Positions 9,185 through 45,000 are shown, counted from the stretch's first letter. The stretch is DNA of 64,000 nucleotides from an uncultured Clostridia bacterium (GCA_964577435.1 CAZNZD010000001.1:7247-71246), one strand, 5' to 3'. The notes: generated by a model not told the origin, from the letters alone. Numbers and translations are program-made.

Positions 9185-9228
9185 CTTGTCAAATTGAGCC
9201 ACCCACGGTGAAGAAGTTCCGATTCTAA

Positions 9229-9265: not shown

Positions 9266-9389
9266 ATTCTCCTTAATTGGAGTCCAGTCCTATTCGGTGC
9301 TTTCTCCCTTGCAAGCCTTTTTGAAATCATAGGCGACTATTAGCGGCATAGGAACAACCGTCCTCAAGAAACCCCCTATAGGCGCGCTC

Positions 9390-25166: not shown

Positions 25167-27317
25167 TTACGGGCGCGCGATGACCTTCGCATCGTTAGCC
25201 TTGAATGCCGATTCGCTGTAATAACGGATGCCCGTCTTCAGATCCAGGCTGTAGTGCTTCATGAAGTCCCACATGATCTCCGCGTGGCCGGCTATGTTGT
25301 TGTGGGCTTCATATAGGGTGAAGACGTATTCCAACACAGGGTACCCTTCGTTATTGGCCCAGGTGAAGGTGCGGAAACGCGCCATGCTGGTGTTCCAGTC
25401 GGAGATATCCCCCACCTTGTTACCCATTGCGCCACCATTTAAGGCATTCCCCCCGCTGTACTCGATAGCGGCAAGGAGGTTCCCCTTTCCTAGCGAATTT
25501 GCGGTGGTGTAGTAATTCATCCACTTGGTTATGCCTGTAGGGGCGGCAGCGGTGCCTATGCTGTCCCAGATGATGTCTGCACCGGCGGCCTTGGCCTCCT
25601 CGGCGGTCGCATAACCAGGTATGCCGCGGTTCGAGTAGTTGCCCTCGCCGATGACCAAGCCGACTGGGATGAAGCTGTTGCTCGCTCCGTCGGTACCCAG
25701 GTTGCCCGGGAAGTTGCTTGGATAAGCCGCAGCCAGTTGTTTGTTGGTCGTGGCGTCCATGGCCAGGTTGTTGGTGGCGCCGCCGCCGGCCGACTGACCG
25801 GTAGCATATATCCTGTTCATGTCAAAGCGGCCATCAGCTGCCAGGAAGTCCCTCATGGCCGTGAACATGACCGTATTGCTGATGCTTGGCAGATTGCCTG
25901 TTCCAGGGGAGGCGGTGCGAGTCTGAAGGAAGATCGCAAAGCCATTCTCTGCCGCGACCTGCCACCACATTGTGGAATCCATGAACAGGTTGGAAGTCTG
26001 AGAAGCGCCATGCCATACCGTGACTACTGGTATATTGCTGTTTCCTGCAGTCTCAGGCACATACAGCAGAGTATCCATTACGTAGCCGCTGGGCAGTGTC
26101 AGGGTCTTGATGGTTATCGTGCCCTTAACCGGCTCCTTGTAGTTGCGTACTTTGGCCGATACGATGCCTGAGGCCTCCTTCTTCGCAGAGGTGAACCTTT
26201 CTACCTGGATTGCAGTGTAATCCAGGCGGTAATTGAGGGCGTTGCCGTAGCTGATGGACACGTCATACCGTGAGTAATCCGTCAGCTGGTCGCGCAGCTC
26301 CCGGTTGAAGGCATAAGTACTGGTAGCGTCGCCCGCTATGGTTACAGTCGTAACCTTGGAGATGGGACCGGCGAACTCCGTAGCCCATGTGTCCTTCTTC
26401 TGGGCAAACACGCTGCCGGTGGCGGTGATGCTGCCGAAAGCAGTCAACGTGACGTCGGCCGCAGCACCGGTGGCCTTATTGACTGTCCTCCAGTAATTGA
26501 GGCTGTCCGTACCCTTGTAGTTCACAAGCCATGTCGGTACGGGCATGTCGTCCTTCTCCAGCAGGCCCTCGAAGTCGCGGTGATTCTTGTTGACGATGTC
26601 CTGCAGCCGGGTGGCCATCTGGATCAATGCCTGCTGACGGTCGATGACTAGATTCCTGTCGCCGTCTGTCATGTGAGCCCAGCCGAAGGAGACGGAACCG
26701 ATATCCGTAAGGGCGCTCGCCCCGACGGATGCTCCGTTCACGAAAGCCTGCGAGATGACCAGATTCGGATTCTCGGCAGCCCATGCTTCCAGAGCAGCTG
26801 CACCTTCGCCGTAACCTTCCAGGTAGAAGACCCCGAAGGTGGTGAAATATGTCCCGACGCCGCCATGCTTGGCCTTGGCCGCATCGATATAAGCCTTCTC
26901 GTCCGGTATGCTGCCCCAAGTGCCGGTTGCTTTATCCGGCAACAGCAGGTAGAGACACTCGCCAGTCTCATCGGCTATGCGCTTCCAGCCGCTGCTTATA
27001 AGCCAGCTGTCCACGTCCGACTTGTTGGGGACAGCTATGAAATGGAAGTAGGGACGAAGCACCGCAGTCGCGGGAATATACCAGCGGACCTCGCGGTTGG
27101 CGAAGCTTCCATCCAGTGCGGAGTAGAAATATCCGGTGGTGGGAAGCTGATTGGCTTCAGTAACGTCACGCACGGGAACCGGTTCATCAGCTAAGTTCTT
27201 GGCTTTCAACTCACTCTCGGGCGCAGCATCGCCAACTGTAATGTCGGCAGACGTGGAGACCGCAGCCGCCATGGCCAGGATAAGCGCCAGAAGCACGACA
27301 AACCATCTCTGTTTCAT
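25167..27317 (-). CDS. secreted tandem alpha/beta-hydrolase (esterase / PHB-depolymerase-like) protein
   Basis: Signal peptide, then two GxSxG nucleophile elbows (NGASVG in the N-half, GQSAGG in the C-half). 716 aa. Confidence 0.6.
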   Translation of the reverse strand: MKQRWFVVLLALILAMAAAVSTSADITVGDAAPESELKAKNLADEPVPVRDVTEANQLPTTGYFYSALDGSFANREVRWYIPATAVLRPYFHFIAVPNKSDVDSWLISSGWKRIADETGECLYLLLPDKATGTWGSIPDEKAYIDAAKAKHGGVGTYFTTFGVFYLEGYGEGAAALEAWAAENPNLVISQAFVNGASVGASALTDIGSVSFGWAHMTDGDRNLVIDRQQALIQMATRLQDIVNKNHRDFEGLLEKDDMPVPTWLVNYKGTDSLNYWRTVNKATGAAADVTLTAFGSITATGSVFAQKKDTWATEFAGPISKVTTVTIAGDATSTYAFNRELRDQLTDYSRYDVSISYGNALNYRLDYTAIQVERFTSAKKEASGIVSAKVRNYKEPVKGTITIKTLTLPSGYVMDTLLYVPETAGNSNIPVVTVWHGASQTSNLFMDSTMWWQVAAENGFAIFLQTRTASPGTGNLPSISNTVMFTAMRDFLAADGRFDMNRIYATGQSAGGGATNNLAMDATTNKQLAAAYPSNFPGNLGTDGASNSFIPVGLVIGEGNYSNRGIPGYATAEEAKAAGADIIWDSIGTAAAPTGITKWMNYYTTANSLGKGNLLAAIEYSGGNALNGGAMGNKVGDISDWNTSMARFRTFTWANNEGYPVLEYVFTLYEAHNNIAGHAEIMWDFMKHYSLDLKTGIRYYSESAFKANDAKVIARP

Positions 27318-28202
27318 TGAATCGCCCCTTTCGATTGAGTGTTACATCTGCCGGCATCAGCGGGGGATTCACCTGGATGGCGGTTCCGCTCGCATCGCAA
27401 TGGCAGAGTGCGTCTGATAGCGTGCCAGCTTGCCACAAGATCCTTCATGCATCTCCTGATCTAAGCTATGATAAGTCAGGCCAACTGGGAGGTCCCTTGG
27501 GTCTTGGATTTCCTTGCATCCATTCCTTATATAGTGCCGAGAGTGCCGTCTCGGCGCATCACCTCCCTTAATATGTGGAATCGCTCCGGTTGTATATTTG
27601 TCGTTCTACCAGGCATGTTTTGCGCTTCTTGCACAGTAGAATTCGAGTCTAAATTTCATCTCTTATCTATCCAAGAGCTTCTCCGTGCTCTACCAGCTTA
27701 GGGAATTGCCCGTCTTCCTTTCGAGCGATCCGCAAGTGATATACTGATGATATATCAACGATATAATAATTACTTCGACACACGATGGTCGTTTCCCTCG
27801 TTAATGCAACCATTAGATTTTAGAATATTTTCGCCAGGGCGATCTTGCCTGGCTGCATCTTGCGAGTATGCTGACAATTTGCTGTTGGGATGCCGTACAG
27901 GGCAAAACAGCACGCACCAACGCGCGCTGCCTAGCTTATCCTTCTATGCTTCATTAGAACGCCTGATAGATTACAGATGGCATGTTGAAGCCTAATGTTA
28001 TCCTTACCAATTCCAACTTCCATCGAGTCGCATCTACCGAAGCCCCGTTAGAATCGCTCGCCCCTCTTGCTGCCCTCTGACTCCAGGAATCATCAGATCC
28101 CATCGCATCGCCGTCTGCACCCCTGTTTCTGACAGGCAGTAATCTATTAGCTGCCCGTAGCCTTCAGGCAACGGGCAGCTCGGGTTTCCTGCCAGGCGAT
28201 CA

Positions 28203-29249
28203 TCACCTACAAGCTTCACAAGTCCTTCTTATCGCATCGAAGCCTATAAGCCTTACATCGGGCGACTTGAAACCATCCTTAATCGGTTCGATCTTCATCA
28301 GGTCAGTGCTCAGGTACTTCTTGTTGTCGTCGGAGAATACGGTTACTACGTTTGCATCCTTGCCTATGATGTCCTGTACCGCAAGTGCGCCGAGGAAGTT
28401 GGCACCAGAGGATATGCCGACTGCGAGTCCCAACTCCTTGGCAAGCTTCTGCGCCATGATTATGGAGTCACCGTCATCAACGTCGATTACTTCATCAAGC
28501 TCTTCGACTTTAAGAATCGGAGGTATGAACTCATCCGAAATGCCCTGGATGCGATGCTTGCCCACCTTGTACCCGACGGAGATGGTCGGTGAATTAGATG
28601 GTTCCAGGGGATGTAGTCTGATCCGAGGGTTCATGCTCCTTAGATATCTGCCTGTGCCCATTACTGTCCCGCCAGTTCCGACGCCTGCGACAAACGCGTC
28701 TGGCATCAAACCCCTGGACTGCATCTGGAACCAGATTTCCGGCCCCGTATGCAAGTAGTGGGCTTCCGGATTGTCGATGTTTGAGAACTGGTGCGGAAGG
28801 AAAGACGAACCGATGCTCTTTGCAAGCTCATCGGCAGCGGCAATGCTTCCCAGAAACCCGCCTTGCTCTTTGCTTATAAGCACTATGTCCGCCCCCAGGC
28901 TGCTGATTAGGTTCTTCCTTTCGGAGCTCATCCAGTCGGGCATGAATATTGTAACGGGATGTCCAAGCGCCCTGCCGATGGCGGAAAAGGAGATCCCCGT
29001 ATTTCCGCTTGTCGCCTCAATTATCATGTCACCCGGCTTCAGATTGCCGGTCTTGTATGCCTTAGAGATGACATGCAGGGCCATGCGGTCCTTTATGCTT
29101 CCCGTCATATTCAAGTTCTCGGACTTCGTGTATACTGTCCTCTTTTTACCCCTGTATTCGCACTCTATTGCCAGAAGGGGGGTGTTGCCAATGTATGCCG
29201 AAAGATTCTCTATGGCGGTGCTGGTTCGAGCTGCATACCCCATTTTCAT
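28203..29249 (-). CDS. cysteine synthase-family PLP enzyme (CysK/CysM paralog) with ~45-aa C-terminal tail ending in CxxC
   Basis: PLP-lysine motif SIKDRMA, glycine loop GTGGT, and SSGAN. The extra C-terminal tail reads ...[16 protein letters not shown]. Confidence 0.8.
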
Positions 29250-29500
29250 ATACCCCCACGAACTTAAGTCTATGAAGGCGGACTTTGAGCTGCTCCGTCT
29301 GCCCCTTACAATACTGCTGGCCCTCATGGATGCCCGATCCGCTTTCTTTGTTCAGCTCATGCTTATGGCAACCCGGACATCCCTTCGGCCTAAGCTACCA
29401 ATCATCCCATCCAGGCCCTGAGAGATGCCGCTATGAGGCCAGGAAGGCATGCGGCATCTTCCCTGAAAAAGGAGGATGCCGCGTCCATGTGAAATCTCTG

Positions 29501-30868
29501 CTACTTGGCGATGGCCGCCAGCTGCCCGAAGAGGGCGTCAAGCGCTTCTGTGTAAGCCTTGTTGTTGACGCCTGTCCCACCGTTCTTGTCGACGTAGCCC
29601 GGCTGTATGTTCTCCCATGTGAACATAAGCTCTATCTGGCCGAGGATCGGGTCGGGATTGCCCTTGGCGTCCTTGCGGTCCTTGTTGTAGACAAAGACAT
29701 AGGGCACCTGGAGTTTGTTTGCGGTCACAACTTTTCCTGCAGCGTCTGTGTACTGGACGTTGTTCTTGTCGATTGCATAGGCTGTCTCTATGCCGGGGAA
29801 GTACTTGAGGACAAGGTCTACATACATGTTCGCATACGCGTTCTTGGTATCGCGGACCTGAAGCACGTTGGAATCAAGCCTTGTGTCCCAAGTGTAGATC
29901 TTATCGATGTTGTACTTCTTTGCGTACTGGTTGACAAGCTTCACCACAGCCTGGGTGTTCGGGCACCATGGTCCGCCGAACATGAAGACGAAGTTGCCCG
30001 GGCTTTCCAGGATCTTGGTGAGCTCGTAATAGGATGTAGTCTGCATCACCCAGGGTTCATCCTTCGCATCTAGTATCGTAGCCTTCGCCCTTGCGTTGTA
30101 AGCAGTGCTGAAGTACTCGAAGTCGGTGAAAGTGTCAAGCTTGGCAGTCTTCTTGCCAAGTATGGACTTCGTCGATATCAGGTCGAATAGTGGGCGGATC
30201 TCCTTCTTGTAAGCTTCGATTTTAGCCGGGTCGTCCTTTCCGTTGGTCTGGAAGTCGGCCTCCCACCTCAGCATCTTCTCATAAGAGGCGAGTATGGGGG
30301 CGGGCTTGCCGTCAGCGGTGACGCCCTTCTTGTTGTAGATGAACAGGAAGGGCACCTGCAGCTTGTTGGCTACTACGGTCTGACCCTCCGCGTTCACGTA
30401 ACTTACATTGTTGACGTTCTTGTCATACAGGGTGACTATGTTGGGCAGGTACTTATTCACAAGGTCTACATAAAGGTTGGCGTATGGGTTTTTGGTGTCG
30501 CGGATGTGCATGGAGGCTCCATCAAGCTTGAAGTCGAAGTTGTATATTGCCTCGACCCCATACTCCTTCGCCACATCGTTGATCTGACCGATTACAGCCT
30601 GGGTGTTGCCGCACCAAGCTCCCCCGAACAGTATCATGTATGTGCCTTCGCTTTCGAACAGCTTTATCAGCTGGTCGTATGAGACCGTCCTGAAGACGGG
30701 TTCAGGGTCTGTCAGGTGGGGGAAATTGGCGCTGTTGAAGAACTGGTACGTCGCATTGATTCCGGTCTTAGCCGCGGCTTCCGCGCCCGTTCCGACCCAC
30801 AAGCTGGCTCCTATTGCCACAATGCAAAGCAGCAACATGGCCGCCCTAGTTAATCTCCTTGCCATCAT
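29501..30868 (-). CDS. secreted protein with two tandem thioredoxin-like single-Cys modules (WCGNTQAV / WCPNTQAV)
   Basis: Signal peptide, then two ~200-aa repeats about 45-50% identical. Both carry FGGxWCxNTQAV, RDTKNxYANxYVDLVxKY and NKLQVPxxFxYNK. Confidence 0.6.
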   Translation of the reverse strand: MMARRLTRAAMLLLCIVAIGASLWVGTGAEAAAKTGINATYQFFNSANFPHLTDPEPVFRTVSYDQLIKLFESEGTYMILFGGAWCGNTQAVIGQINDVAKEYGVEAIYNFDFKLDGASMHIRDTKNPYANLYVDLVNKYLPNIVTLYDKNVNNVSYVNAEGQTVVANKLQVPFLFIYNKKGVTADGKPAPILASYEKMLRWEADFQTNGKDDPAKIEAYKKEIRPLFDLISTKSILGKKTAKLDTFTDFEYFSTAYNARAKATILDAKDEPWVMQTTSYYELTKILESPGNFVFMFGGPWCPNTQAVVKLVNQYAKKYNIDKIYTWDTRLDSNVLQVRDTKNAYANMYVDLVLKYFPGIETAYAIDKNNVQYTDAAGKVVTANKLQVPYVFVYNKDRKDAKGNPDPILGQIELMFTWENIQPGYVDKNGGTGVNNKAYTEALDALFGQLAAIAK

Positions 30869-30910
30869 CTTGCTCCCCTTTCGTTGAGTGCTGTAGTCCA
30901 GTGTGAATGA

Positions 30911-31156
30911 TTACGGGCACACTGCCCCGTCTGAGGATGGCGATTCCGCCTGAGGCGCAGCAACGCTGCCCGTATCTGGCGCCGCACCTGTAGCCGGAAG
31001 AAGTCCTCCTGGCAGTACATTGATTACCAGCCCTCCGCCAGAGCTTGGCGCGGCTGGTGCGAATGCATTCTTTTTCTGAAAATTGACCATGGTGAAAAGC
31101 CCGAAGCCGATGGCGACGAGCACTATAAAAAGTGCCACTGAATGCCTGTTTATCAA
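30911..31156 (-). CDS. small single-TM membrane protein with Pro/Gly/Ala-rich tail
   Basis: TTG start with AGGAGG 7 nt upstream. One N-terminal TM helix (VALFIVLVAIGFGLFTMV) followed by a low-complexity tail. Confidence 0.45.
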   Translation of the reverse strand: MINRHSVALFIVLVAIGFGLFTMVNFQKKNAFAPAAPSSGGGLVINVLPGGLLPATGAAPDTGSVAAPQAESPSSDGAVCP

Positions 31157-31375
31157 CTAGTTACCTCCTCTCGAAAGGCAGATGCCAATCTCGCTTAGCT
31201 GCCGGCGTCAGGGTCGTATACTAGCTTGACTGACGCTTCCTCCTGTCCCGGCCGGCAATTCATGTGATCTTTGTCCACTATTGACACAGCATTGTATGTT
31301 CTAGCTTCTTTCGTGACTCTTAGCGGCTTGGCCGCTGAACTCATGCCAGCCGCCACTCCACCGATGTCAGTATCC

Positions 31376-32782
31376 TCATGCCGCCTCAGTCGTTTCCACG
31401 TCAGCCTTAGGATTGTCATATACAGTCTGATCTACTTCCTTCAGGATCCTGGCAGAGACCGCTCCCGCCACAAATGCATCTGATACGTTAAGCGCGGTGC
31501 GGCCCATGTCTATCAATGGCTCAATCGAGATCAGCAGGCCGGCGAGGGCTATGGGCAGGTTGAGCGCTGAAAGCACTATCAAAGCAGCGAACGTCGCCCC
31601 TCCTCCGACTCCGGCAACCCCGAACGAGCTAATGGCTGTTACTATCGCGACCGTAAACAGGAAGCCTATTCTAAACGGATCAATCCCGACTGTTGGTGCT
31701 ATCATGACGGCCAGCATCGCAGGATAAATCCCGGCGCAGCCGTTCTGTCCGATAGCAATCCCGAAGGTGGCGGCGAAGTTCGCCACGCCCTCGGATATGC
31801 CCAGCTTCTTGGTCTGGGTCGAGACGGTCATAGGCAGCGTTCCTATGCTGGTGCGGGACGTGAATGCGAAGGCAAGCGTCGGGAACGCTTTCTTCAGGTA
31901 AGTCCATGGATTGTACTTGAACACAGCGAGAATGAACAGATGGACGATGAACATGATTATGATTGCCGCATACGAGGCAATTACGAATTTTGCCAGATTC
32001 ATGATTGCGTTAAAATCTGTGCCTGCAACCATTGAAGCCATCAAAGCCATAACACCGAACGGCGTGAGCTTGAGGATCATCGTTGTCATCCTCATAGTCA
32101 CTGCATAAGCTGCGTCCACAAGCTTCTGAACCAAATCGGTCTCGGCCGGGTATTTCTTCCTTGCTCCAAGAGTTGCCAGCCCGATGAAGGCTGAGAACAC
32201 CACCACTGCTAACGTGGAAGTGTTTCTTGCCCCTGTCATGTCCTTAAACGGGTTTGTGGGAATGATCTCAAGAATCTTGTCAGGCAGCGATGTTGTTGCC
32301 TGTGCGGATGACTGCTGCAGCACTGCGGCCCTTTGTGCCTCGGCGGCACCGACAGTCAGCTCCCTTGCGTCAAGGCCGAAGGCCAGTGCTGAGACCTCGC
32401 CCACCATGGCTGCCACGCCGGCAGTAAGCACCAGCGTAAGGATTACGCTCAGGCTCATCTTGCCCAGGTTCTTCGAATCCTTGAGCTTCAGTATTGCCGA
32501 TATGATTGAAACCATGACCAATGGAATGACTATCATGCGGAGAAGGTTCACATACCCATTTCCCACCAGCCCATACCACGGAAGCGTGCCATCGATGACT
32601 TCCTGTTGCCCTTTGAAGGCGAACTGCAAAGCAAGGCCTAGTACTATTCCCAGGCCGAGCGCAATCAGCACACGCTTCGTGAATGACGCCTTCTTCACCT
32701 GCATCCAGTAGACAATTCCTAGCAATACTGCAAGTACGACGACGTTTATCACAATATACAGATTTACCATGAGTTCCTCCAA
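31376..32782 (-). CDS. dicarboxylate/amino acid:cation symporter (DAACS) family transporter, TcyP-like by length (specificity unknown)
   Basis: 468 aa with 8 TM helices plus two re-entrant loops, typical of DAACS/GltP proteins. GGAGG RBS. Confidence 0.8.
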   Translation of the reverse strand: MEELMVNLYIVINVVVLAVLLGIVYWMQVKKASFTKRVLIALGLGIVLGLALQFAFKGQQEVIDGTLPWYGLVGNGYVNLLRMIVIPLVMVSIISAILKLKDSKNLGKMSLSVILTLVLTAGVAAMVGEVSALAFGLDARELTVGAAEAQRAAVLQQSSAQATTSLPDKILEIIPTNPFKDMTGARNTSTLAVVVFSAFIGLATLGARKKYPAETDLVQKLVDAAYAVTMRMTTMILKLTPFGVMALMASMVAGTDFNAIMNLAKFVIASYAAIIIMFIVHLFILAVFKYNPWTYLKKAFPTLAFAFTSRTSIGTLPMTVSTQTKKLGISEGVANFAATFGIAIGQNGCAGIYPAMLAVMIAPTVGIDPFRIGFLFTVAIVTAISSFGVAGVGGGATFAALIVLSALNLPIALAGLLISIEPLIDMGRTALNVSDAFVAGAVSARILKEVDQTVYDNPKADVETTEAA

Positions 32783-33559
32783 TACCCTTAGTAGTGTTAG
32801 ACCTTGGTGTTTCCTTTATCCTCCGCTTCCTCCCCGCCTCTCCGAACCGGGCTCCCGGCTGCATCTATAATGGCTTCCACTTCGGATGCAGACCGCAAAG
32901 CGCCTATCTTGGCCGCCTCCATCACCTTCTTTCGGACTCATCAAACGAACGATGTATTTGAATGTATCAATATTCGCCCATTAGATTGGAAATCCTTCTG
33001 CAGGGATACTATTCTATCCCTGTCAAATCATTGTATTCATATGCCATCTCATAGGAGGATGGGTATCTTCTCCCTGATGTGCGAATAACCACAAGAAGGT
33101 GCGCGCAATCGGATGCGGCAATTACGACCGCCTCCCAATTTCTGTGAAATATGGGTGTCTCTCACGCCCGAAAGCAGCAGGAGGGGGCCTAAGCGCTCCA
33201 TCTCATCCAGGCCATGTATGAGCCTCCGGTCTCTAACACGGAGAGGGGAAATGCACCTGAGTCCTTACTTAGAGCGCGCTCCTAGAAGCGACAATATCGC
33301 TTCTGCCAAGATTCTGTGAGAGAGGCATATCGGGCGGTGAAATATATATTTACTTTCACCCTTAATAAGGTGGACAGACTGCTTCTTACCATTTATTATC
33401 ATTTACAGATTGTATCTATTTGCTTCGAGCAGATCGTTGGGCGACTCATCACCTAAGCCGCCTCATCCTCCGGGAGCAGGGTTGCTACTGGTCGCCTGCC
33501 CCGGCCCCAACCTCTCAAGGCGCAATACTCTTCTCACCATCTGACAAAGGGGTGCGCAT

Positions 33560-36268
33560 ATGATATCATGGCTTTCTTGCCTGTGGGCTAAGACACCCAC
33601 GGACGAAACGGCTGCCACCTATCACCCGCTTCTTCTTCACATGCTGGATGCCGCCGCCTGTGCAAGAGCCTTGCTTAAAAGGGAGCCTCAAAGCACCTCT
33701 CGCATGCTGGCCGCTGCTTTGATGATGGACCCAGACGAGCTCCCCTCGCTGCTCAGCTTCCTAGTCGCCTGCCACGATATCGGAAAGGCGGCGCCCGGGT
33801 TTCAGCTGAAGTGGCCTCCTTTCAACAGGATGGCCGCTGCTGAAGGGATAACGATTCCGCATCACCCGGATACCAGCTTCAATCATGCCTTCCTTAGCCA
33901 GTCAGTGCTTGAGACAGAACTGCCTTCCCTTGGTTGGGATCCAGGCAGGGCAAGGCTACTTTCATATGCCGTTGGTTATCATCACGGGGTTCGCCCCTCT
34001 TTCAGCACAATCCTTGAACTGGAGTCGAATAGAGGCGCCATAGGGGATAAAAGCTGGTCTGAAGCCAGATGTGACATCCTTCGCCTGTTAGCCGGTTTCT
34101 TCAAGGTGAAGCCGCCCACATCGGAATATCCCCACGATCCCGCCGGTGAGGACTTCGCTATGCTGGCCGGATTCATCACCATATCGGACTGGATAGCCTC
34201 CGATACCAGGATGTTCCCCTACGGTACGGCCGATGACTGCCTTGATCTTGAGACATGGTACAAGATCAGATGCAAGCTTGCTGCAGCAGCTTTGGATCGA
34301 ATCGGTTGGAATGTGAAGTCCCCTCTTACTGAAATGCCTTTATCCTTTACAGATGTCTTCAGCAAGTATTCCCCGCGACCCCTTCAGTCTGCGATGGCTC
34401 AAGCCACGCTCGCCACTGAGACCCCCTCCGTTTTCGTAATAGAGGCCCCGATGGGCGAGGGAAAGACGGAGGCCGCACTCTTCTCATACCTCGTCCTGCA
34501 GGCTCGCCTCGGGCATAGAGGCCTTTACATGGCGATGCCGACAAGGGCTACTGGAAATGCCATGTATGACAGAGTACGCGAATTCCTGGATGGCCTGAAA
34601 CTTGACAGGCCGATCGACCTCCAGCTCGTGCACGGAGCGGCAGTCAGGCAAAAGCCTGAAGGCGATGTAAGAGCTTTCACAGCTAACAGCGAAAGCCATC
34701 CATCCTCTGCTCCGGCTGCTGACATCGAGGCGTCGGAGTGGTTCGGAAGCAGGAAGAAGGCGCTGCTGTCCGAAACGGGTGTAGGAACCATAGACCAGGC
34801 TTTGATGTCCGTGCTGAGCGTCAGGCACAATTACCTCAGGATGTGGGGACTGGCCAATAAGGTGGTCGTCTTCGATGAAGTGCACGCCTACGACGCTTAT
34901 ACCGGCACGCTTCTTCTGGAGCTTATACGTTGGCTCCACTACCTTAACTCCTCTGTGGTGATCCTCTCTGCCACATTGCCGGACAAGTTCAGGTCCGAGC
35001 TGGCTTCCGTCACAGGAAGCGATAAGCTTGTGACCACTTTGCCGCAGGCAAAAGCCGAATACCCGAGAATCACAGTGATGGACAGGCACGGTATGAAAGA
35101 GTCAGGCTTCCCGTATGACGAAACCCTCTCAAGGGAGATTGCGATAATCGGCGCATCTGTGGATGCAGACGCTCCGAGGTTGATCATAGAAAGCCAGTTG
35201 GAGAACAGTGGCATGGCCGCTGTCATCGCTAATACCGTCGACCGGGCCCAAGCGGTCTATCGCGCATTTGGCCCGGGGGATGCCATACGCAAAGACGGGG
35301 AGACTGTCGGCAAGCTCCTTCCGGATGGCACAGAGATCTACTTGTTCCACGCCAGATTCCCCTCGGATTCAAGGAGGGTAAGGGAGGGCAATGCACTCGA
35401 TCTATTCTTCAGCAAGAACGAGACAAGGCAAGGGCGCAAGGTGATAGTCGCCACTCAGGTCATCGAGCAAAGCCTGGACCTGGACTTCGACCTTATGATA
35501 ACCGACCTTGCTCCGGTAGACCTCCTTCTGCAGAGGGCAGGAAGGCTTTGGAGGAAGCCTCGCAATGCAAGGCCGACGGAGAAGCCACTTCTTTACGTGG
35601 CCGGATTGTACGAAAGGCTGTTTGACTTCGGACGGCCTCTCTGGTGGAGCGCAGTATACAGGGAGGACATCCTGATTAAGACATGGGCGCTGCTAAGGAA
35701 CCGGACTGCAATCCGGATGCCGGCCGATATCGACCTTCTTGTGCAGGCGGCATATGGAGAGGATATTACGATGCTTGGGGATATTACGGAGGCTGAGCGG
35801 CAGCGCTATGAGAGGGCCGAACAAGAGAGCCAGGGAACCGTATCGGCGATGAGGTGCGCCGCGAGGAGTACTGCCATAGGCCACCCTGATGACGGGTCGT
35901 GGGAAGACCCCAGCCGGCTGTGTCTGCTTGAGGAGGCTTCTCCGGAAGTAAATCGGATGCTGGTCGCTAAGACGAGGAGTTCGGACAGCAGCATGACTGC
36001 AGTATTGATCCGGCCCGATTCAATCTCATCGCTCACCGAAGTGAAGGATTCCCAGACCTTGAAGGACCTTATAGGCAGAAGCATCGGCATTTCCCGCAAG
36101 TCCGTTATCTCCGCTCTTGGCAGGGCAGGGGTTCCGGAGGCATGGAAGAAGGAGCCCGTCTTGAGATTCTGTTATCCGATGCTTCTTGATGATGATGGGA
36201 GGTGGCAGATGGACCGCAACGTCAGGCTGGATGATGAACTCGGACTCGTTTATGGTCAGGAGGTATAA
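33560..36268 (+). CDS. cas3: Cas3 HD-nuclease/helicase (type I-E)
   Basis: N-terminal HD domain (HMLDAAA...CHDIGKAAPGFQ), DEVH box (VVVFDEVHAYD) and a helicase C-terminal domain. 902 aa. Confidence 0.9.
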   Translation: MISWLSCLWAKTPTDETAATYHPLLLHMLDAAACARALLKREPQSTSRMLAAALMMDPDELPSLLSFLVACHDIGKAAPGFQLKWPPFNRMAAAEGITIPHHPDTSFNHAFLSQSVLETELPSLGWDPGRARLLSYAVGYHHGVRPSFSTILELESNRGAIGDKSWSEARCDILRLLAGFFKVKPPTSEYPHDPAGEDFAMLAGFITISDWIASDTRMFPYGTADDCLDLETWYKIRCKLAAAALDRIGWNVKSPLTEMPLSFTDVFSKYSPRPLQSAMAQATLATETPSVFVIEAPMGEGKTEAALFSYLVLQARLGHRGLYMAMPTRATGNAMYDRVREFLDGLKLDRPIDLQLVHGAAVRQKPEGDVRAFTANSESHPSSAPAADIEASEWFGSRKKALLSETGVGTIDQALMSVLSVRHNYLRMWGLANKVVVFDEVHAYDAYTGTLLLELIRWLHYLNSSVVILSATLPDKFRSELASVTGSDKLVTTLPQAKAEYPRITVMDRHGMKESGFPYDETLSREIAIIGASVDADAPRLIIESQLENSGMAAVIANTVDRAQAVYRAFGPGDAIRKDGETVGKLLPDGTEIYLFHARFPSDSRRVREGNALDLFFSKNETRQGRKVIVATQVIEQSLDLDFDLMITDLAPVDLLLQRAGRLWRKPRNARPTEKPLLYVAGLYERLFDFGRPLWWSAVYREDILIKTWALLRNRTAIRMPADIDLLVQAAYGEDITMLGDITEAERQRYERAEQESQGTVSAMRCAARSTAIGHPDDGSWEDPSRLCLLEEASPEVNRMLVAKTRSSDSSMTAVLIRPDSISSLTEVKDSQTLKDLIGRSIGISRKSVISALGRAGVPEAWKKEPVLRFCYPMLLDDDGRWQMDRNVRLDDELGLVYGQEV

Positions 36269-36269
36269 G

Positions 36270-37805
36270 ATGGGCAGTTTCAACCTTTTAGACGAGGCAT
36301 GGATCCCGGTGAGCATGCTCGACGGGACAAAACGAAGCCTGGGGCTGAAGGATATTTTTCGGAATGCAGGTTCAATACTGGCAATCGAGCACACCTCTCC
36401 GCTTATAGTCGGATCAGTATACAGGCTGTTGCTTGCTGTGCTCTACAGGGCTTTTGACGGACCCTCCTCGCTCGGCGAGGCTTCACGGATATATGAGGAC
36501 GGGTTAAGCAGAAGGTTGCCCGACATCCATGATTACCTGGAGAGATGGCGGGAGAGATTCTACCTATTCGATGACGCGCACCCCTTTTTCCAAGTCCCGG
36601 ATTATATGCCCAAGTCCAGGCGATACTGGACTGCACTGGCCGCCGAGATGAACGACGACAACTCGAAAGTCTTGTTCGACCACACAGGCTTTGAGGGCTT
36701 ACAGGAGGACTTCATGGCCCTTGACCCAATAAACCACGCAGAAGCGGCATTATTCCTGCTTGCCACTCAGGCATTCTCAGTATGCAAGGGAAAAAGCGAG
36801 TTCCAATATACCAAGGGTGCGCCCATAGCCTCTTCAGCGGCTTTCATTGTTCAAGGGACATCCTTAGAGGATTCCCTGTTACTCATGTTGCATCCATATC
36901 CCAACAAGGAAGTGCAGCAGGCCGACTTGCCTGTCTGGGAGCGGCCCCCACTATCGTCATGCCAGCTGAAGGAGGGGATATCCCGCGAGATCTCTGGTTA
37001 TGCCGACCTTTACACATGGATGAGCAGGTCCGTGAAGCTACTCGCCGAGAACGATGGGAAGGTGCATTCTATCGGCCTAGCATCAGGGGTAGTAGATGAT
37101 AACACCCTCAATCTGGAGGATCCAATGTGCGGTTTCAGGACCGACCAGAAGTTCGGGCGGCTTCCGCTTCAATTCGGCGAAAGGGGTTTGTGGAGGAACT
37201 TCGATTCGCTGATTCCATCAAGCTCTGCAGATTGTGCCCCTAAAGTAGTAGAGAATGCCATTGCACTAATGAGAAGGAGTGGTAAGCATTCCGTATTCAG
37301 CCTTCTTGCAGTCGGCCAGAGTAACGACAAGGCCAAGATCGAGTTCTGGCGGCAGGAGAGGTACTCCATGCCGGAAGCCATGCTCTCCGACCTCGACGCA
37401 AGAGGTATCGTGCAATCGGCAATACGGCTGGCGGAGGATTACAGCCAACCGATAATCGGCGCCTGCAGGACATATGCAAAGAAGATGCTCTCCGGAGGCG
37501 ACCGGGATCCTGACATGAAAGACGTCACCTCCTTCTTAAGAAGCGCGACGGCGATCCAGGATTATTGGACAGGGGCCGAAAGGGGATTCCATGAGCTTTT
37601 ATCCGCGATGGATACGCAGTTCGACCCTGATGAAGTAGAAGACGCCTGGAGAGACCACCTAAGACGAACAGCCCTTAAGTCCTGGGATGACTATATGGCA
37701 TCACAGACCGGCATAAGGTCCATAGTTGCTCAAGCTCACGGCAAGCGCACTCTAATGGTAAAGCTTAATCATCTATCTCCACAGCAAGGGGGGACGGTAT
37801 CATGA
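36270..37805 (+). CDS. cse1: Cse1/CasA (Cas8e) large Cascade subunit
   Basis: Starts 1 nt after the cas3 stop with a GGAGGT RBS. N-terminus MGSFNLLDEAWIPV is typical of CasA. 511 aa. Confidence 0.85.
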   Translation: MGSFNLLDEAWIPVSMLDGTKRSLGLKDIFRNAGSILAIEHTSPLIVGSVYRLLLAVLYRAFDGPSSLGEASRIYEDGLSRRLPDIHDYLERWRERFYLFDDAHPFFQVPDYMPKSRRYWTALAAEMNDDNSKVLFDHTGFEGLQEDFMALDPINHAEAALFLLATQAFSVCKGKSEFQYTKGAPIASSAAFIVQGTSLEDSLLLMLHPYPNKEVQQADLPVWERPPLSSCQLKEGISREISGYADLYTWMSRSVKLLAENDGKVHSIGLASGVVDDNTLNLEDPMCGFRTDQKFGRLPLQFGERGLWRNFDSLIPSSSADCAPKVVENAIALMRRSGKHSVFSLLAVGQSNDKAKIEFWRQERYSMPEAMLSDLDARGIVQSAIRLAEDYSQPIIGACRTYAKKMLSGGDRDPDMKDVTSFLRSATAIQDYWTGAERGFHELLSAMDTQFDPDEVEDAWRDHLRRTALKSWDDYMASQTGIRSIVAQAHGKRTLMVKLNHLSPQQGGTVS

Positions 37806-38284
37806 ACGGTTTCATCGACCGGCTCGAGGAGCTTAATGAAGGTGACCCCAAAGTCAGGGCAGAGCTGAAAAGGAGCCTTTCATTCGACCCCGGCACATAT
37901 CCGAGGGTATTCGGATTTGTTGAGCCCTGGGTGCAGAAAACGCAGCTGAATGATTCGAGGCGCATAGCCTACTACCTAGTTGCAGGACTATGGGCGATGA
38001 ACTGGAGCGAGGCGACGGGAAGGGGTGGCAATTCAATCGGAAAAGCCTGCCTCCTACTGAGAAACCAGAAGGACTCCTCGAGCATGGATGCCCGGTTCAT
38101 CAACCTTTTGGAGGCTGATGAGGGGCAGCTTCCCAACAGGCTGCGGCAGATTGTGTCCCTTCTGAAGGAGATACCTATAGACTTCAGACAGCTGCTGGAT
38201 GACGTAGTCTTTTGGGGCTTCGAAGACAAGCGCATCCAGATAAGGTGGGCCAAGGAATACTTCGGTGGAATTGAAATCCAATAA
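37802..38284 (+). CDS. cse2: Cse2/CasB (Cas11e) small Cascade subunit
   Basis: 160 aa alpha-helical protein in the position and size expected for CasB. Overlaps cse1 by ATGA. Confidence 0.85.
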   Translation: MNGFIDRLEELNEGDPKVRAELKRSLSFDPGTYPRVFGFVEPWVQKTQLNDSRRIAYYLVAGLWAMNWSEATGRGGNSIGKACLLLRNQKDSSSMDARFINLLEADEGQLPNRLRQIVSLLKEIPIDFRQLLDDVVFWGFEDKRIQIRWAKEYFGGIEIQ

Positions 38285-38297
38285 AGGAGGTAGGAAA

Positions 38298-39449
38298 GTG
38301 AACAGACTGCTAGTTGAAGTGCATGTCCTTCAGAACTTCGCCCCGTCCAATCTTAACAGGGATGATACCGGAGCACCCAAAGATGCGATTTTCGGGGGCT
38401 CCAGAAGAGCCAGGATATCGAGCCAGTGCCTTAAAAGGTCAGTACGGGAGTACTTTAGGGAAAAGGCAGAAGATGGAGTTATTGCCGTCGATGATTTAGC
38501 CATAAGGACTAAGAGGCTGCACGCCATGCTTCTTGATTCTCTTGAGCCTTTGGGAAGGAGGCCTGAGGAATCGGAGGGTAAAATCAAGACCGCATTGTCG
38601 TGGATAAACCTGTCTTTGGACGAAAAGAATGAGAATAAGAGCCAGTATCTTCTTTTTGTAGGGCCAAGGGAAGTAAGCGACATAGCCAGGATCATCAACG
38701 ACAAATGGGACCTTATCCTAGTGGCTGAGCTAGGCGGCGAAGAGAAGAAAGCCAAGAAGAAGGATGCAGCAAAAGCTTCAGACCCCAAGGTGGCAGATGC
38801 ACTCCGTAAGGCATTAGACGGCGGCAAGGCTATAGATCTGGCTTTGTTCGGAAGGATGCTTGCCGACATGCCCGGTAAGAACGCCGATGCCTCATGCCAG
38901 GTGGCGCACGCGATCTCAACTCATGCAGTTGAAAGGGAGTTCGACTTCTATACCGCGATCGACGACCTAAAGCCGGATGACACCTCAGGGGCTGATATGA
39001 TGGGTACCGTGGAGTTCAACTCCGCCTGCTTCTATAGATACGCCGTTCTGGATTGGGAGAAATTTCTTAGTAACCTTCAAGGGGATGCTGAGCTGGCCAG
39101 GAAGGCCGCTCGTTTATTCATTGAGAGCTTCGTGATGGCGGAGCCGAGCGGAAAGCAGAACTCCTTCGCAGCCCATAACCCACCGGAGTTCGTCATGGTC
39201 TCATTGGTTACGAAAGGACAACCCCTCAACCTTCTTAACTCATTCGAAAGGCCTGTGTATTCGAAGAAGGGGCTCACTGCAGCCTCTGTAGACGCCCTAA
39301 CGGATAAGGCCAAAGCTTTAAATACAGCCTATTCCAGGGCTTCTGATAATTTCATTCTGAACCTGACAAGCTCCGACGCCGAAGGCCTCGGTATCAAGGT
39401 TGGCACCCTTAACGACCTGCTTGATAAGACAGCCAGCAGACTGGCTTAG
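38298..39449 (+). CDS. cas7e: Cas7e/CasC Cascade backbone subunit
   Basis: GTG start with AGGAGG 7 nt upstream. Motif HVLQNFAPSNLNRDDTGAPKD is diagnostic of CasC. Confidence 0.85.
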   Translation: MNRLLVEVHVLQNFAPSNLNRDDTGAPKDAIFGGSRRARISSQCLKRSVREYFREKAEDGVIAVDDLAIRTKRLHAMLLDSLEPLGRRPEESEGKIKTALSWINLSLDEKNENKSQYLLFVGPREVSDIARIINDKWDLILVAELGGEEKKAKKKDAAKASDPKVADALRKALDGGKAIDLALFGRMLADMPGKNADASCQVAHAISTHAVEREFDFYTAIDDLKPDDTSGADMMGTVEFNSACFYRYAVLDWEKFLSNLQGDAELARKAARLFIESFVMAEPSGKQNSFAAHNPPEFVMVSLVTKGQPLNLLNSFERPVYSKKGLTAASVDALTDKAKALNTAYSRASDNFILNLTSSDAEGLGIKVGTLNDLLDKTASRLA

Positions 39450-39459
39450 GAGTGATAGA

Positions 39460-40131
39460 ATGCCTACAGTCCTACTGAAGTTGATAGGACCGATGCAGTC
39501 CTGGGGCGTTGTCAGCCGGTTCGATCAAAGGGATACTTTCCGTGAACCCAGCAAGTCAGGTGTCATCGGCCTTGTCTGCGCAGCTATGGGGATAGACCGC
39601 TCGGATTATGGAAGGCAGTCGCCCTTGTATAGGGCAAGAATGGGAGTTAGGCATGACAGGCCCGGTACCCTAAGGTATGATTTCCAGACCGCTGCATGCA
39701 AGAAGGCGGATGTGATCATCCGAGCTGATGGCAAGCTGGCTACTGACGGCGGAGTCATCTCAAAAAGGTACTACCTAGCCGACGCCGCTTTCCTGGTTGG
39801 CCTTGAACTAGATGACCGGCTACTATTAGAAGCGATTTGTGTAGCGCTAGATAATCCCGTATGGCCTCTGTACCTGGGCAGGAAATCATACGTGCCGTCC
39901 GAGCCCGTTACTTGCAGTGACCGACCCGTTGACATGCCGTTGGTGGAGGCATTAACGAGTCATCCTGCTCTAGATGGCAGGATTGGAAGCCCGGCTGACA
40001 AGACCTTACTGCTGTCCATTGAGAATGATAGGCAGGAGGGGCTCCTAGTAATGGACCAACCGCAGGGTGCTTTGGAGGAGCGGCGCTTTTCCGCGCGCTA
40101 CCTAAAGACAGAAACAATTGTGTTGTGCTGA
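39460..40131 (+). CDS. cas5e: Cas5e/CasD
   Basis: N-terminus MPTVLLKLIGPMQSWG matches the CasD consensus. Confidence 0.85.
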   Translation: MPTVLLKLIGPMQSWGVVSRFDQRDTFREPSKSGVIGLVCAAMGIDRSDYGRQSPLYRARMGVRHDRPGTLRYDFQTAACKKADVIIRADGKLATDGGVISKRYYLADAAFLVGLELDDRLLLEAICVALDNPVWPLYLGRKSYVPSEPVTCSDRPVDMPLVEALTSHPALDGRIGSPADKTLLLSIENDRQEGLLVMDQPQGALEERRFSARYLKTETIVLC

Positions 40132-40140
40132 GGTGGAGAT

Positions 40141-40766
40141 ATGTATCTATATAGGGCGGTTCTGAATCTTAGATGCAAGGAAGTCCGAAGAGACATCTCC
40201 GATGCTTATCAGATGCATTCGACCTTATGCAGGGTTTTCTCGGAACCATCTCAGAAATGCAAGCCAGGTACTATGCTGTGGAGGCTGGAGCCCGAGAATA
40301 GCCCCAATGGAAATCCTGTTGTGCTGGTTGTTAGCAGTGAGCTCGCCAACTGGAAACGGTTGGGGATTTCAGATTGGTTGGATGGTACTCCAGATGGACC
40401 TGTTAACTTATCGGAGAGGTTCAGCAGCAGTTATTACGACAACGGATCGTTATTAAGGTTCCGGCTAAGGGCCAATCCGAGTTACTGCTCTGTGGGAAAG
40501 AGACATGCATTAAGAGCGCCTGAGAAGCAGGCTGACTGGATGAACAGGCAGGCAGAGAAATGGGGATTTGAGATTGTCAGCCAATTAGTCAGCCATCAGG
40601 CTGATATCCGAGGCGGAACCCGGGCGGGCGACCCGATTATAGTGTTCTCTGCATTATATGACGGTATGCTCAGAGTTCGTGACAAGGATAGGTTGGTCGA
40701 GGCCATGCTGCATGGAATTGGACACGGCAAGGCTTTGGGATTGGGCCTCTTAACGGCGGCTCCACA

Positions 40767-40770
<4 letters not shown>
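40141..40770 (+). CDS. cas6e: Cas6e/CasE crRNA endoribonuclease
   Basis: C-terminal glycine-rich loop GIGHGKALGLGLL. 209 aa. Confidence 0.85.
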
Positions 40771-41979
<1,209 letters not shown>

Positions 41980-42007: not shown

Positions 42008-45000
42008 GCTTTCCCCGCAGGCGCGGGGATGAACCGCAATATGTGTAAAAACTGCAATTACGAAGTTAGCTTTCCCCGCAGGCGCGGGGATGAACCGGTC
42101 AGCGAAGAGCTCCTGGCTGATGCCAAGTAGCTTTCCCCGCAGGCGCGGGGATGAACCGTCTTTGGCGTACTGTTTGACTCCTGCGTAGTCGCTTTCCCCG
42201 CAGGCGCGGGGATGAACCGGCTAGGTCCGCATTAGCATGATCCAGCCCGCCGCTTTCCCCGCAGGCGCGGGGATGAACCGCATGAACTCCAGGTTCGAGC
42301 ACTTCGTTCAGAGCTTTCCCCGCAGGCGCGGGGATGAACCGTACACGGCCTCCCATCACGCTGGTGACAATCCGCTTTCCCCGCAGGCGCGGGGATGAAC
42401 CGTGATTTCGAGCGTCTCCCCGTCTGCTATCTCCGCTTTCCCCGCAGGCGCGGGGATGAACCGGCCGTGTCAGTCCTTCCAGGGATAGCTGAGGCGCTTT
42501 CCCCGCAGGCGCGGGGATGAACCGTCAACAACCCCAACGACGCAGGCGGGGAAACGGCTTTCCCCGCAGGCGCGGGGATGAACCGTACTCGCTTGCGGAA
42601 GCGTTAGGCATAGAGGAGCTTTCCCCGCAGGCGCGGGGATGAACCGCCTTACAACAAACTTTACGACTATATGTATAAGCTTTCCCCGCAGGCGCGGGGA
42701 TGAACCGGGGAATGAGATAGCTGCCGTCGCGGTCATGACGCTTTCCCCGCAGGCGCGGGGATGAACCGCAGTGTTGCTTGTTAGTAGAAAATGGGGAAAA
42801 GCTTTCCCCGCAGGCGCGGGGATGAACCGATCTCTCCAACCTTCTCTGCCATTCGGACCGCGCTTTCCCCGCAGGCGCGGGGATGAACCGGAAATTGACG
42901 CCTGCGCCACGGACCTGGCGGAGCTTTCCCCGCAGGCGCGGGGATGAACCGATTTCGAAACTCACGCCGTAGTAGTTGTAGAGGCTTTCCCCGCAGGCGC
43001 GGGGATGAACCGATTATCAACTTGTCCATACTCTGACCACCTCTGCTTTCCCCGCAGGCGCGGGGATGAACCGTCGCTTTACACCAGCAACGACGGCACT
43101 AACGAGCTTTCCCCGCAGGCGCGGGGATGAACCGTAGCGGTCTGCCGTTGGCTTGTCTATCTTCCAGCTTTCCCCGCAGGCGCGGGGATGAACCGACCGG
43201 CTTCAGGAACTCGGTAAGCCCGAGCCCGCTTTCCCCGCAGGCGCGGGGATGAACCGGGCAGGATGCCTGGATTGGTGGAGCTGTCAGGGCTTTCCCCGCA
43301 GGCGCGGGGATGAACCGCGGATAGTCGTATGGAGGGGGTATTCGGGCGCGCTTTCCCCGCAGGCGCGGGGATGAACCGGGTGGCGCAGGTATGCCTGAGG
43401 CCGTGGAACTGCTTTCCCCGCAGGCGCGGGGATGAACCGGCACGCTCAGCACAACATAGCAGGCAAGGCCAGCTTTCCCCGCAGGCGCGGGGATGAACCG
43501 TCCTTCTCCAACTCGGTCATCGTGTCGCCTCCGCTTTCCCCGCAGGCGCGGGGATGAACCGCGGACCGCCGGAAGCCTGTGCCTGTGGATTTCGCTTTCC
43601 CCGCAGGCGCGGGGATGAACCGGCCTTGACTATTTCGACCCTCGCCCCGGTCGTGCTTTCCCCGCAGGCGCGGGGATGAACCGCAATGAAGGAGGCGACG
43701 ACATGAACGGGCTCCGCTTTCCCCGCAGGCGCGGGGATGAACCGAACACAGGATAGACGGAGATCTGACGAAGGTGGCTTTCCCCGCAGGCGCGGGGATG
43801 AACCGTTCTTCAACGCCGTCTTCTGCGCCATCGCGTCGCTTTCCCCGCAGGCGCGGGGATGAACCGTTGGACTTTGCGATTGCGTTATACAGCCTGCCGC
43901 TTTCCCCGCAGGCGCGGGGATGAACCGTAAACGTAATCACCTGCAGGCACAGGGTCAGTGCTTTCCCCGCAGGCGCGGGGATGAACCGGTTCCTGCGCCG
44001 TCGCTCTTTATCAGCCCTGTGCTTTCCCCGCAGGCGCGGGGATGAACCGTATTGCCGCCACCTTGCACCCCTTCAGCGCATGCTTTCCCCGCAGGCGCGG
44101 GGATGAACCGAGGGGAGCGCCGATACCTTGATCTGACGCAGAGCTTTCCCCGCAGGCGCGGGGATGAACCGTCGTTGTTTTCCTCGAAAGCCTTCGCCCT
44201 GTTGCTTTCCCCGCAGGCGCGGGGATGAACCGCAAGCACTACTTCCGTAGCGATTACTGGGCTTGCTTTCCCCGCAGGCGCGGGGATGAACCGATCACGC
44301 TGAGCGGCTGAGTTCTTGCACCCTGGCTTTCCCCGCAGGCGCGGGGATGAACCGACGCTCATGGCCATACTGAAAATGAAGGCGAAGCTTTCCCCGCAGG
44401 CGCGGGGATGAACCGGTCAGTACGATGTTGACTGCCGTCGCCTGGTTGCTTTCCCCGCAGGCGCGGGGATGAACCGTACGCTGTCGGGGGAGTCGACCTC
44501 GCAGAAACGCTTTCCCCGCAGGCGCGGGGATGAACCGAGCAGATCATGAGGCGGCTGATAGAGGTTGAGGCTTTCCCCGCAGGCGCGGGGATGAACCGGC
44601 ACGAGTCGCAGAGCTGATGCTGGAACGATAGCTTTCCCCGCAGGCGCGGGGATGAACCGCTGGAATAATTCTTTATGCAACTCCTTCGCCAGCTTTCCCC
44701 GCAGGCGCGGGGATGAACCGTGTCGAAAGGCGCCCCTATTGGTACGTGGCGGGCTTTCCCCGCAGGCGCGGGGATGAACCTGAGGGGAGGTCGCCGCTGA
44801 TGGCTGATGAAAGAGCTTTCCCCGCAGGCGCGGGGATGAACCGATGAGAATGGCAAGCCCAACTACGTGACAGGCGCTTTCCCCGCAGGCGCGGGGATGA
44901 ACCGAAACTTGCCGACTTCTTCGCTGCCGCAGGGACGCTTTCCCCGCAGGCGCGGGGATGAACCGGGATTTCCGATGCCTTCTTGGACACGGCAGAAGCT

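Follow-up and report, generated by a model that had tools for sequence, protein, structure and literature searches.

Within a 64,000-nucleotide stretch of DNA from an uncultured Clostridia bacterium (GCA_964577435.1 CAZNZD010000001.1:7247-71246; hereafter the window), four consecutive open reading frames (ORFs) on the minus strand encode a symporter of the TcyP type, a small protein with a membrane anchor and a near-terminal lone cysteine (the tether), an exported protein with two thioredoxin-fold modules (the tandem protein), and a pyridoxal-phosphate (PLP) enzyme resembling CysK2/Fn1055. A first-pass annotation, made from the sequence of the window, had placed four ORFs at 28203-32782, all of which are present, and had read them as one operon for acquiring a sulfur amino acid or disulfide. 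The unit that is conserved, however, has three genes rather than four: transporter, tether and tandem protein recur together across several phyla. We propose, with a probability of roughly 45%, that the locus encodes an extracytoplasmic monothiol disulfide-exchange relay that feeds a cystine-type importer, i.e., a sulfur amino-acid acquisition module. The gene architecture on which this proposal builds is solid, and the chemistry is what we infer from it.

Examination of gene neighbourhoods, with one genome per species, yielded 78 loci that contain the tandem gene. They come from Spirochaetota metagenome-assembled genomes (MAGs), from Paenibacillus and Cohnella, from rumen and gut Clostridia MAGs, and from two Firmicutes/Clostridia MAGs that are close to the window (L005 at 93% and L004 at 84%). 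A TcyP-like SDF gene was detected by tblastn at most about 5 kb from the tandem gene in about 66 of the 78, and this linkage holds in four gene orders and across the Spirochaetota, the Paenibacillaceae, the rumen Clostridia and an actinobacterial-type contig. The proposed four-gene set did not survive the same comparison: apart from the window, a CysK2-like gene adjoins the cluster only in L005 and in scaffold L088, both of them close relatives and the latter fully syntenic, and homologues of the enzyme at 77% identity occupy unrelated gene contexts.

The transporter gene most likely begins at ATG 32770, and not at TTG 32782, because the ATG is preceded by a GGAGGA Shine-Dalgarno sequence and gives the 464-residue length of a public protein (P0121) that is 100% identical to the product. 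Pfam SDF (PF00375) spans residues 35-445, i.e., the whole protein (4.4e-100). Identity to E. coli TcyP (b1729, annotated as a cystine/sulfocysteine:cation symporter) is 45% over 460 residues, which is full length (362 bits), and rises to 56-59% for Paenibacillus proteins named L-cystine transporter by the Prokaryotic Genome Annotation Pipeline. Models for GltP, DctA and SstT score 134, 87 and 68 bits, all far under their cut-offs, and a neighbour-joining tree (no bootstrap, SstT as root) places the window transporter inside the TcyP clade, apart from GltP and DctA. The earlier suggestion of a TcyP-like symporter is borne out by identity, model scores and tree, and the same three results exclude a glutamate/aspartate or C4-dicarboxylate carrier. 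By these sequence measures the protein is a TcyP orthologue, which would be expected to transport cystine.

Linkage to the tandem gene extends beyond TcyP proper to three further SDF subfamilies, mutually 27-35% identical, all of which cluster with TcyP, apart from E. coli GltP and DctA (neighbour-joining, SstT as root, no bootstrap). Their members carry an extra cysteine in the motif of transmembrane (TM) segment 7, which was examined in the window tcyP and in the SDF genes of L018, L061 and L083: the motif reads QNGCAG, FNGCGG, MPGCTC or MPGCAG, where GltP, DctA and SstT have NLDG-S, NLDG-T and NMAG-A. QNGCAG lies at about residues 344-349 of the window TcyP and matches the N-x-D-G of GltP/DctA/SstT, which is the region of the substrate/ion site. 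With TcyP (YdjN/YhcL; E. coli and Bacillus subtilis; DAACS, TC 2.A.23) the window protein shares full-length orthology, equal length, and the DMGRT and QNGCAG motifs. It differs, as do the three TcyP-like subfamilies, in being coupled to two exported thiol proteins, whereas characterised TcyP proteins, to our knowledge, act alone.

The first of these partners is the tandem protein, which had been described as a secreted protein of two thioredoxin-like modules with the CxxC reduced to CxxT. This description holds: the 455-residue product has a signal peptide, carries WCGNT at residues 85-89 and WCPNT at residues 301-305, and in its mature form contains exactly two cysteines, one in each module. 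Its AlphaFold2 (AF2) model, built on a 27-sequence alignment and of high confidence (predicted local distance difference test score, 91.8; predicted template-modelling score, 0.87), has a double thioredoxin fold, and Foldseek matches it to multi-thioredoxin proteins, e.g., PDI, QSOX and ERdj5; therefore, each module of about 200 residues is a thioredoxin fold with insertions, with no closer structural family. Pfam matches fall below threshold (16.6 bits against 23.5 for Thioredoxin, PF00085, and 18.3 against 27 for Thioredoxin_8), and those to NCBIfam are far under their cut-offs. The protein thus has the fold of a thioredoxin, but neither the CxxC dithiol site nor a score that reaches the curated model threshold.

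Conservation is concentrated in module 2, where W301, C302, N304, T305, R339 and P389 (QVPY) are invariant in 27 diverse members, Thr occupies the second-cysteine position in 27 of 27, and the motif is retained as WCHNT in the distant member L083. The Paenibacillaceae members of alignment A1 that are shown have Ala in place of the Arg equivalent to R339. In that alignment W85 of module 1 is invariant, and the cysteine that follows (C86) is Ser in most Paenibacillaceae members and Asp in L022; the module 1 motif is wholly lost in several other members and in L083. Because C86 is replaced or the motif lost in several lineages, module 1 appears to be dispensable or degenerate in some of them.

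About 200 relatives of the tandem protein were found in a search of 5.8 billion proteins, with no precomputed Pfam domain, and a profile run against 1.84 billion cluster representatives returned only 418 at E <= 1e-3; the family, for which Pfam has no model, is therefore rare. The extracytoplasmic location is confirmed by those relatives that bear C-terminal SLH domains or have a TM anchor. The TM-anchored tandem proteins of five rumen Clostridia loci (L061, L063, L067, L068 and L071) end in short acidic Gly-Cys-Cys tails (e.g., ...GGDDSGCC), which follow a Lys-rich stop-transfer sequence and are presumably cytoplasmic.

The second partner, the tether, had been recognised as a small ORF with a TTG start, and TTG 31156, with GAGGAGG as Shine-Dalgarno sequence ahead, is indeed its start; what had been overlooked is that its sole cysteine is the penultimate residue, at the C-terminus. 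No Pfam or NCBIfam family matched it. When all loci were checked systematically, 79 of the 81 tandem genes had an ORF with an acidic end and a cysteine as their immediate upstream neighbour. One of the two misses is a truncated locus, and in the other (L006) the small ORF was not selected, though tblastn detects it; one counted case, L013, is a wrong-frame ORF, the true L013 tether having 92 residues, and the tether of its near-identical relative L014 ends in ...AAADGAACP. BLAST clustering of all ORFs in the loci divides the upstream tethers into six sequence-unrelated clusters. Only 7% of the other ORFs in the same loci have a Cys within the last four residues, so that, with each of the six clusters taken as one event, the chance expectation of the terminal-Cys pairing is about 1e-7.

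What these unrelated sequences have in common is a design: an N-terminal signal-anchor, a low-complexity disordered linker of 80-350 residues, and an acidic C-terminus that ends in Cys. The C-termini read ...DGAVCP in the window, ...AAACP in spirochaetes, ...EEEVCP, ...EEEIC or ...SEEEC in Paenibacillus, ...EEICPPEEEICP in Cohnella and ...EEIELC in rumen Clostridia. Even the distant, high-GC, actinobacterial-type locus L083 has a tether in its middle gene, in permuted form, with a signal peptide, a mature N-terminus DTGDICDIC, a Pro/Thr linker and a C-terminal TM anchor. Moreover, tether length follows the placement of the tandem protein: 81-99 residues where it is free, 168-201 in rumen Clostridia, where it is free or TM-anchored, and 232-355 where it is anchored to the wall by SLH domains. 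The design, its permuted form and the length correlation are arguments that the tandem protein has to lie within physical reach of the terminal cysteine.

Several further features of the tethers were noted. The short tethers of the window/spirochaete clade (L004, L007, L009, L012; in the window at about 30990-31040) contain an internal GG(L/I)(V/I)I(N/K) in an otherwise disordered linker, which may be a docking strand. A reading of the final Cys-Pro as a heme-regulatory motif was set aside, as many tethers end in Cys alone. Paenibacillus glycinis (L042) has two tether-tandem pairs side by side (8001-9287 and 12219-13436) with one SDF gene downstream, one tether ending in ...DEDCGIEDCG and the other in ...EEEVCP. 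On the ENA scaffold syntenic with the window, L088, the tether gene (5992-6378) was left uncalled by the public gene caller; small genes of this class can escape annotation.

The genes around the trio support the sulfur amino-acid or disulfide theme of the first-pass annotation, since neighbours in every clade point that way. In the spirochaete/Firmicute clade, a gene for a flavoprotein of the CoA-disulfide-reductase (CoADR) family lies between tcyP and the tether gene. It is intact in about ten related loci (L001/L004, L002, L006-L011 and L021), where NF007123 scores 621-641 bits against a cut-off of 458. The window cluster has no intact member of this family, only two fragments detected by tblastn with the L001 reductase. 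One (31365-31300) corresponds to residues 6-27 at 59% identity and includes the GGVAAGMS motif for flavin adenine dinucleotide; the other (31314-31210) corresponds to residues 349-383 at 54% identity (E 4e-8). Because both lie in the gap of 219 nucleotides where relatives keep the gene intact, the reductase gene was evidently deleted in the window, and we take the scar to support an ancestral gene order with the CoADR gene between tcyP and tether. The module of rumen Clostridia is preceded by genes for a class-V aminotransferase, a Cys/Met-metabolism PLP enzyme, ThiF, JAB and a TrxB-like reductase, a set that resembles protein-thiocarboxylate-dependent sulfur assimilation. At least seven Cohnella/Paenibacillus loci add a ResA-like CxxC redoxin, and an AhpC/Redoxin gene neighbours the module in L001. 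The cytoplasmic neighbours thus vary by lineage, and all are sulfur or disulfide enzymes.

The neighbour particular to the window and its closest relatives is the PLP enzyme. Its gene is best started at ATG 29249, and not at 29327, because homologues are 347-349 residues long (e.g., P0241, 97% identical, 348 residues) and because of the alignment to solved structures. The product is CysK-like and ends in ...RRTCEACR, as had been noted, but a canonical CysK or CysM is excluded, since its scores lie under the NCBIfam equivalog cut-offs (cysK, 303 against 351; cysM, 239 against 394); the cysKM subfamily model is likewise not reached (313 against 344). Its best solved relatives are 5b53, 5b55 and 5z5c at 408 bits, which we take to be Fusobacterium nucleatum Fn1055; the next, an ordinary CysK, scores 236. 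The alignment to 5b53 runs end to end (query residues 41-361 to chain residues 12-331) and includes the C-terminal extension beyond CysK. FN1055, called CysK2, produces H2S and L-serine from L-cysteine (PMC9600241). The window enzyme is closest to this Fn1055/CysK2 type, with a predicted cysteine-degrading activity.

The Fn1055/CysK2 type, by far its best solved relative, nonetheless differs from the window subfamily, which adds a KRTCxxC tail that does not align to the last nine residues of the Fn1055 chain. The CxxC tail, which had been pointed out before, is not special to this operon, being common to a large CysK2-like subfamily. Longer Fn1055-like relatives of 365-401 residues (P0263, P0269, P0277, P0287, P0297, P0339, P0359; e.g., from Aminicenantes) have the tail CxxCCxxxxC...(L/I)PxCPRR, whose cysteines suggest a metal or Fe-S site, and of this Cys-rich tail the window enzyme has the first CxxC only.

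A relay of the kind we propose would depend on the single cysteines of the two exported proteins, which, to judge from sequence and fold, are presented as reactive thiols. The tether would hold its cysteine at the free end of a flexible linker on the membrane, and the tandem protein keeps a nucleophilic Cys and a cis-proline motif but lacks the resolving Cys (CxxT). Such a site resembles those of monothiol glutaredoxins, ERp44 (CRFS) and CxxS variants of PDI and DsbA, all of which have a thioredoxin fold with the N-terminal active-site Cys only, and the tandem-domain layout recalls PDI and QSOX. The chemistry of single-Cys thioredoxin-fold proteins is limited to forming and exchanging mixed disulfides; the attacking Cys alone, as in monothiol glutaredoxins and CxxS PDI variants, exchanges disulfide partners with no net reduction. 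The tether/tandem pair may likewise swap disulfide partners with no net electron flow, a chemistry that would suit the cell exterior because no electron supply is needed.

The tandem protein would attack disulfides of cysteine in the environment, i.e., cystine, or Cys bound to proteins or other thiols, and the tether Cys would serve as the partner or carrier thiol, either standing in, held at the membrane, for a thiol cofactor that would otherwise diffuse, or acting as a SoxY-like arm. The product, cystine or a related disulfide accepted by the adjacent carrier, would be imported by the TcyP orthologue. In relatives, the imported disulfide would be reduced by the CoADR-family or TrxB-like flavoprotein, the gene for which has been deleted in the window genome. 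The Fn1055/CysK2-like enzyme might then turn cysteine into serine and H2S, or run a related beta-replacement.

Several observations weigh against this relay. Twelve of the 78 loci have no SDF gene in the flanks examined, and many hosts are anaerobes, in whose surroundings free cystine should be scarce, so that the real substrate may differ. E. coli TcyP is not known to rely on such partners, and the tether/tandem pair can therefore be an accessory at most. The topology of the 81-residue tether, with its C-terminus outside, is predicted from the signal-peptide-like N-termini of relatives. The Fn1055 reaction is known for the Fusobacterium enzyme only, and the window enzyme bears the additional CxxC tail. 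A literature search found no paper describing the tether/tandem pair, a TcyP-linked thioredoxin-like protein or a terminal-Cys carrier; a paper on a Moorella 'cystine reductase' concerns activity in crude extract only.

A bolder proposal would make tether and tandem protein a new class of accessory for secondary transporters, in which a covalent swinging-arm thiol carrier binds extracellular cysteine, or some other sulfur species, as a disulfide and hands it to a TcyP-like elevator transporter, possibly at the TM7 cysteine (QNGCAG, FNGCGG, MPGCTC), such that uptake would proceed via covalent intermediates and not by free diffusion. We hold this to be unlikely, if far from negligible. A similar standing can be given to a cysteine/cystine redox-defence shuttle. 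Tether and tandem protein would here act as extracytoplasmic thiol antioxidants or protein-repair factors; exported cysteine would re-reduce them, TcyP would recover the cystine, and the CoADR-like or TrxB-like enzyme would reduce it. E. coli has a cysteine/cystine shuttle, the CxxT site recalls the Cys-Gly-x-Thr of glutathione peroxidases, a disulfide reductase gene adjoins the transporter gene in two clades, and the AhpC/Redoxin neighbour in L001 and the ResA-like neighbours in Cohnella would fit. We consider both the protective role of the two proteins and the cycle that would sustain it to be rather improbable.

Distinctly unlikely, in our view, is a carrier of sulfane or oxidised inorganic sulfur, in which a SoxY-like tether Cys would hold a persulfide or thiosulfonate that the tandem protein loads and unloads, leading to S-sulfocysteine or persulfide-type substrates. 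A terminal Cys on a flexible arm is the hallmark of SoxY, which is extracytoplasmic, has its single Cys at the end of a flexible C-terminal GGCGG peptide and is serviced by partner enzymes; E. coli TcyP is annotated for sulfocysteine too, and many hosts are, by their record titles, from sulfidic, anoxic habitats. The tether, however, resembles SoxY in this principle only: it has no folded SoxY domain and no SoxZ partner, its acidic-x-Cys(-Pro) motif ([DE][DE]x-Cys(-Pro)) is not GGCGG, a long disordered linker joins it to its membrane anchor, and its gene is linked to that of an amino-acid transporter. The window tether, with its C-terminus ...DGAVCP and no matching Pfam or NCBIfam model, has no Sox genes as neighbours, the recurrent neighbours across the loci include no Sox, rhodanese or DsrE-type gene, and no clear route leads from protein-bound sulfur to a free, transportable amino acid. 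Strict pairing with the transporter gene could also mean that the tandem protein is a non-catalytic receptor, binding substrate or docking on the transporter like a solute-binding protein, with cysteines that are structural or regulatory. Its two-fold internal duplication could fit a symmetric ligand such as cystine, and its many invariant Tyr, Asn, Asp and Arg residues are of the kind that ligand sites typically have. We think this very unlikely: the invariant residues are the catalytic positions of thioredoxins (Trp-Cys at the start of helix 1, QVP), the partner tether conserves only the terminal Cys in its acidic context, and we know of no DAACS transporter that uses a binding protein. The CysK2-like gene is a lineage-specific neighbour only, and spacers of 219 and 251 nucleotides permit separate transcription, both of which would be expected if the genes had unrelated functions and were adjacent by chance or hitch-hiking; given that the tether-tandem pairing is essentially universal and that the SDF linkage is kept through four gene orders and four deep clades, such an origin of the trio is scarcely credible.

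Known extracytoplasmic systems such as CcdA/DsbD-ResA/TlpA also place membrane-associated thioredoxin-fold proteins outside the cytoplasm, and it is a ResA-like gene that lies near the module in the Cohnella/Paenibacillus loci mentioned above. Those systems, however, use CxxC proteins and an electron-transferring membrane protein, whereas the core pair described here has neither a CcdA/DsbD nor a CxxC. TcyP, the Fn1055-type enzyme, extracytoplasmic thiol:disulfide systems and cystine uptake are already known; what is new is the tether/tandem pair, for which neither Pfam nor NCBIfam has a model, together with its coupling to TcyP-like carriers. Transporters of the DAACS family, to which the human glutamate and ASCT carriers also belong, are not known to use extracellular partner proteins. 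That four deep lineages encode a conserved pair of exported single-Cys proteins next to TcyP-like carriers suggests a thiol-chemistry step at the cell surface that has gone unstudied, and the trio may represent a novel means of extracellular sulfur amino-acid capture. A lone Cys on a linker just long enough to span the distance to its partner would be an unusual and simple way to stop a thiol cofactor from diffusing off. How bacteria of gut, rumen and soil obtain sulfur, keep their redox balance and produce H2S is governed by their uptake of cystine and cysteine, and the hypothesis can be tested in culturable Paenibacillus and Cohnella strains; carriers of the module among these include Paenibacillus macquariensis ATCC 23464 (L041), P. 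silagei DSM 101953 (L028) and Cohnella thailandensis DSM 25241 (L065).

The layout of the cluster in the window (Table 1) agrees in part with the tight operon first described. Spacing is tight at one junction only, that between tether and tandem gene (42 nucleotides); the gap between tcyP and tether is 219 nucleotides and that between the tandem and CysK2-like genes is 251. Over this last spacer, RNA structure is not significant overall (z = -1.28). An upstream sulfur riboswitch or T-box had been considered, and an Rfam scan of 27000-34000 gave no RNA family match (E <= 1); at gathering thresholds, Rfam scans of eight related loci gave tRNA only, with no riboswitch or T-box. Scans for promoters and terminators showed no enrichment relative to shuffled sequence.

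Table 1. Features of the TcyP/tether/tandem locus and its surroundings (positions counted from the first nucleotide of the window)
Coordinates	Strand	Feature	Basis or remarks
27318..28202		885-bp non-coding stretch 3' of the CysK2-like gene	Short ORFs only; no Rfam match
28203..29249	-	CysK2/Fn1055-like PLP enzyme, 348 aa, C-terminal TCEAC	Pfam PALP 5e-67
29451..29482	-	Hairpin GCGGCATC...GATGCCGC just past the stop codon of the tandem gene, without U-tail	Read from sequence
29501..30868	-	Exported tandem monothiol thioredoxin-fold protein, 455 aa	Signal peptide, motifs, AF2 fold
29954..29968	-	Module 2 motif W301-C302-P-N304-T305	Alignment
30602..30616	-	Module 1 motif W85-C86-G-N-T89	Alignment A1
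30911..31156	-	Tether, 81 aa: N-terminal membrane anchor, Gly/Pro/Ala-rich linker, C-terminus ...SSDGAVCP	TTG start
31210..31365	-	Deletion scar of a CoA-disulfide-reductase-family flavoprotein gene	tblastn with L001 reductase, two fragments
31376..32770	-	tcyP, TcyP-type cystine:cation symporter (DAACS/SDF; predicted), 464 aa	Pfam SDF, TcyP similarity
32771..33559		Divergent non-coding region between tcyP and cas3, presumed promoter region	No Rfam match

The non-coding stretch that had been reported to follow the operon is real and holds no credible ORF, and a counterpart is present in the syntenic scaffold L088. No remnants of the L005 flanking genes (a serpin and others) were found in a search of the window's non-coding gaps. 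Beyond this stretch, at 25167-27317 on the minus strand, lies a gene for a secreted protein of 716 residues with weak, sub-threshold similarity to esterases of the polyhydroxybutyrate-depolymerase type, which is conserved in L088 and not in L005. On the other side of the cluster, the plus strand carries a complete type I-E CRISPR-Cas locus at 33560-41678 (cas3, cse1, cas7/CT1975-like, cas6e-like and cas1), and a very large CRISPR array of 105 repeats, with a 61-bp period and the core CTTTCCCCGCAGGCGCGGGGATGAAC, occupies 42009-48379. This CRISPR-Cas locus and its array account for the block of 63% G+C in the window.

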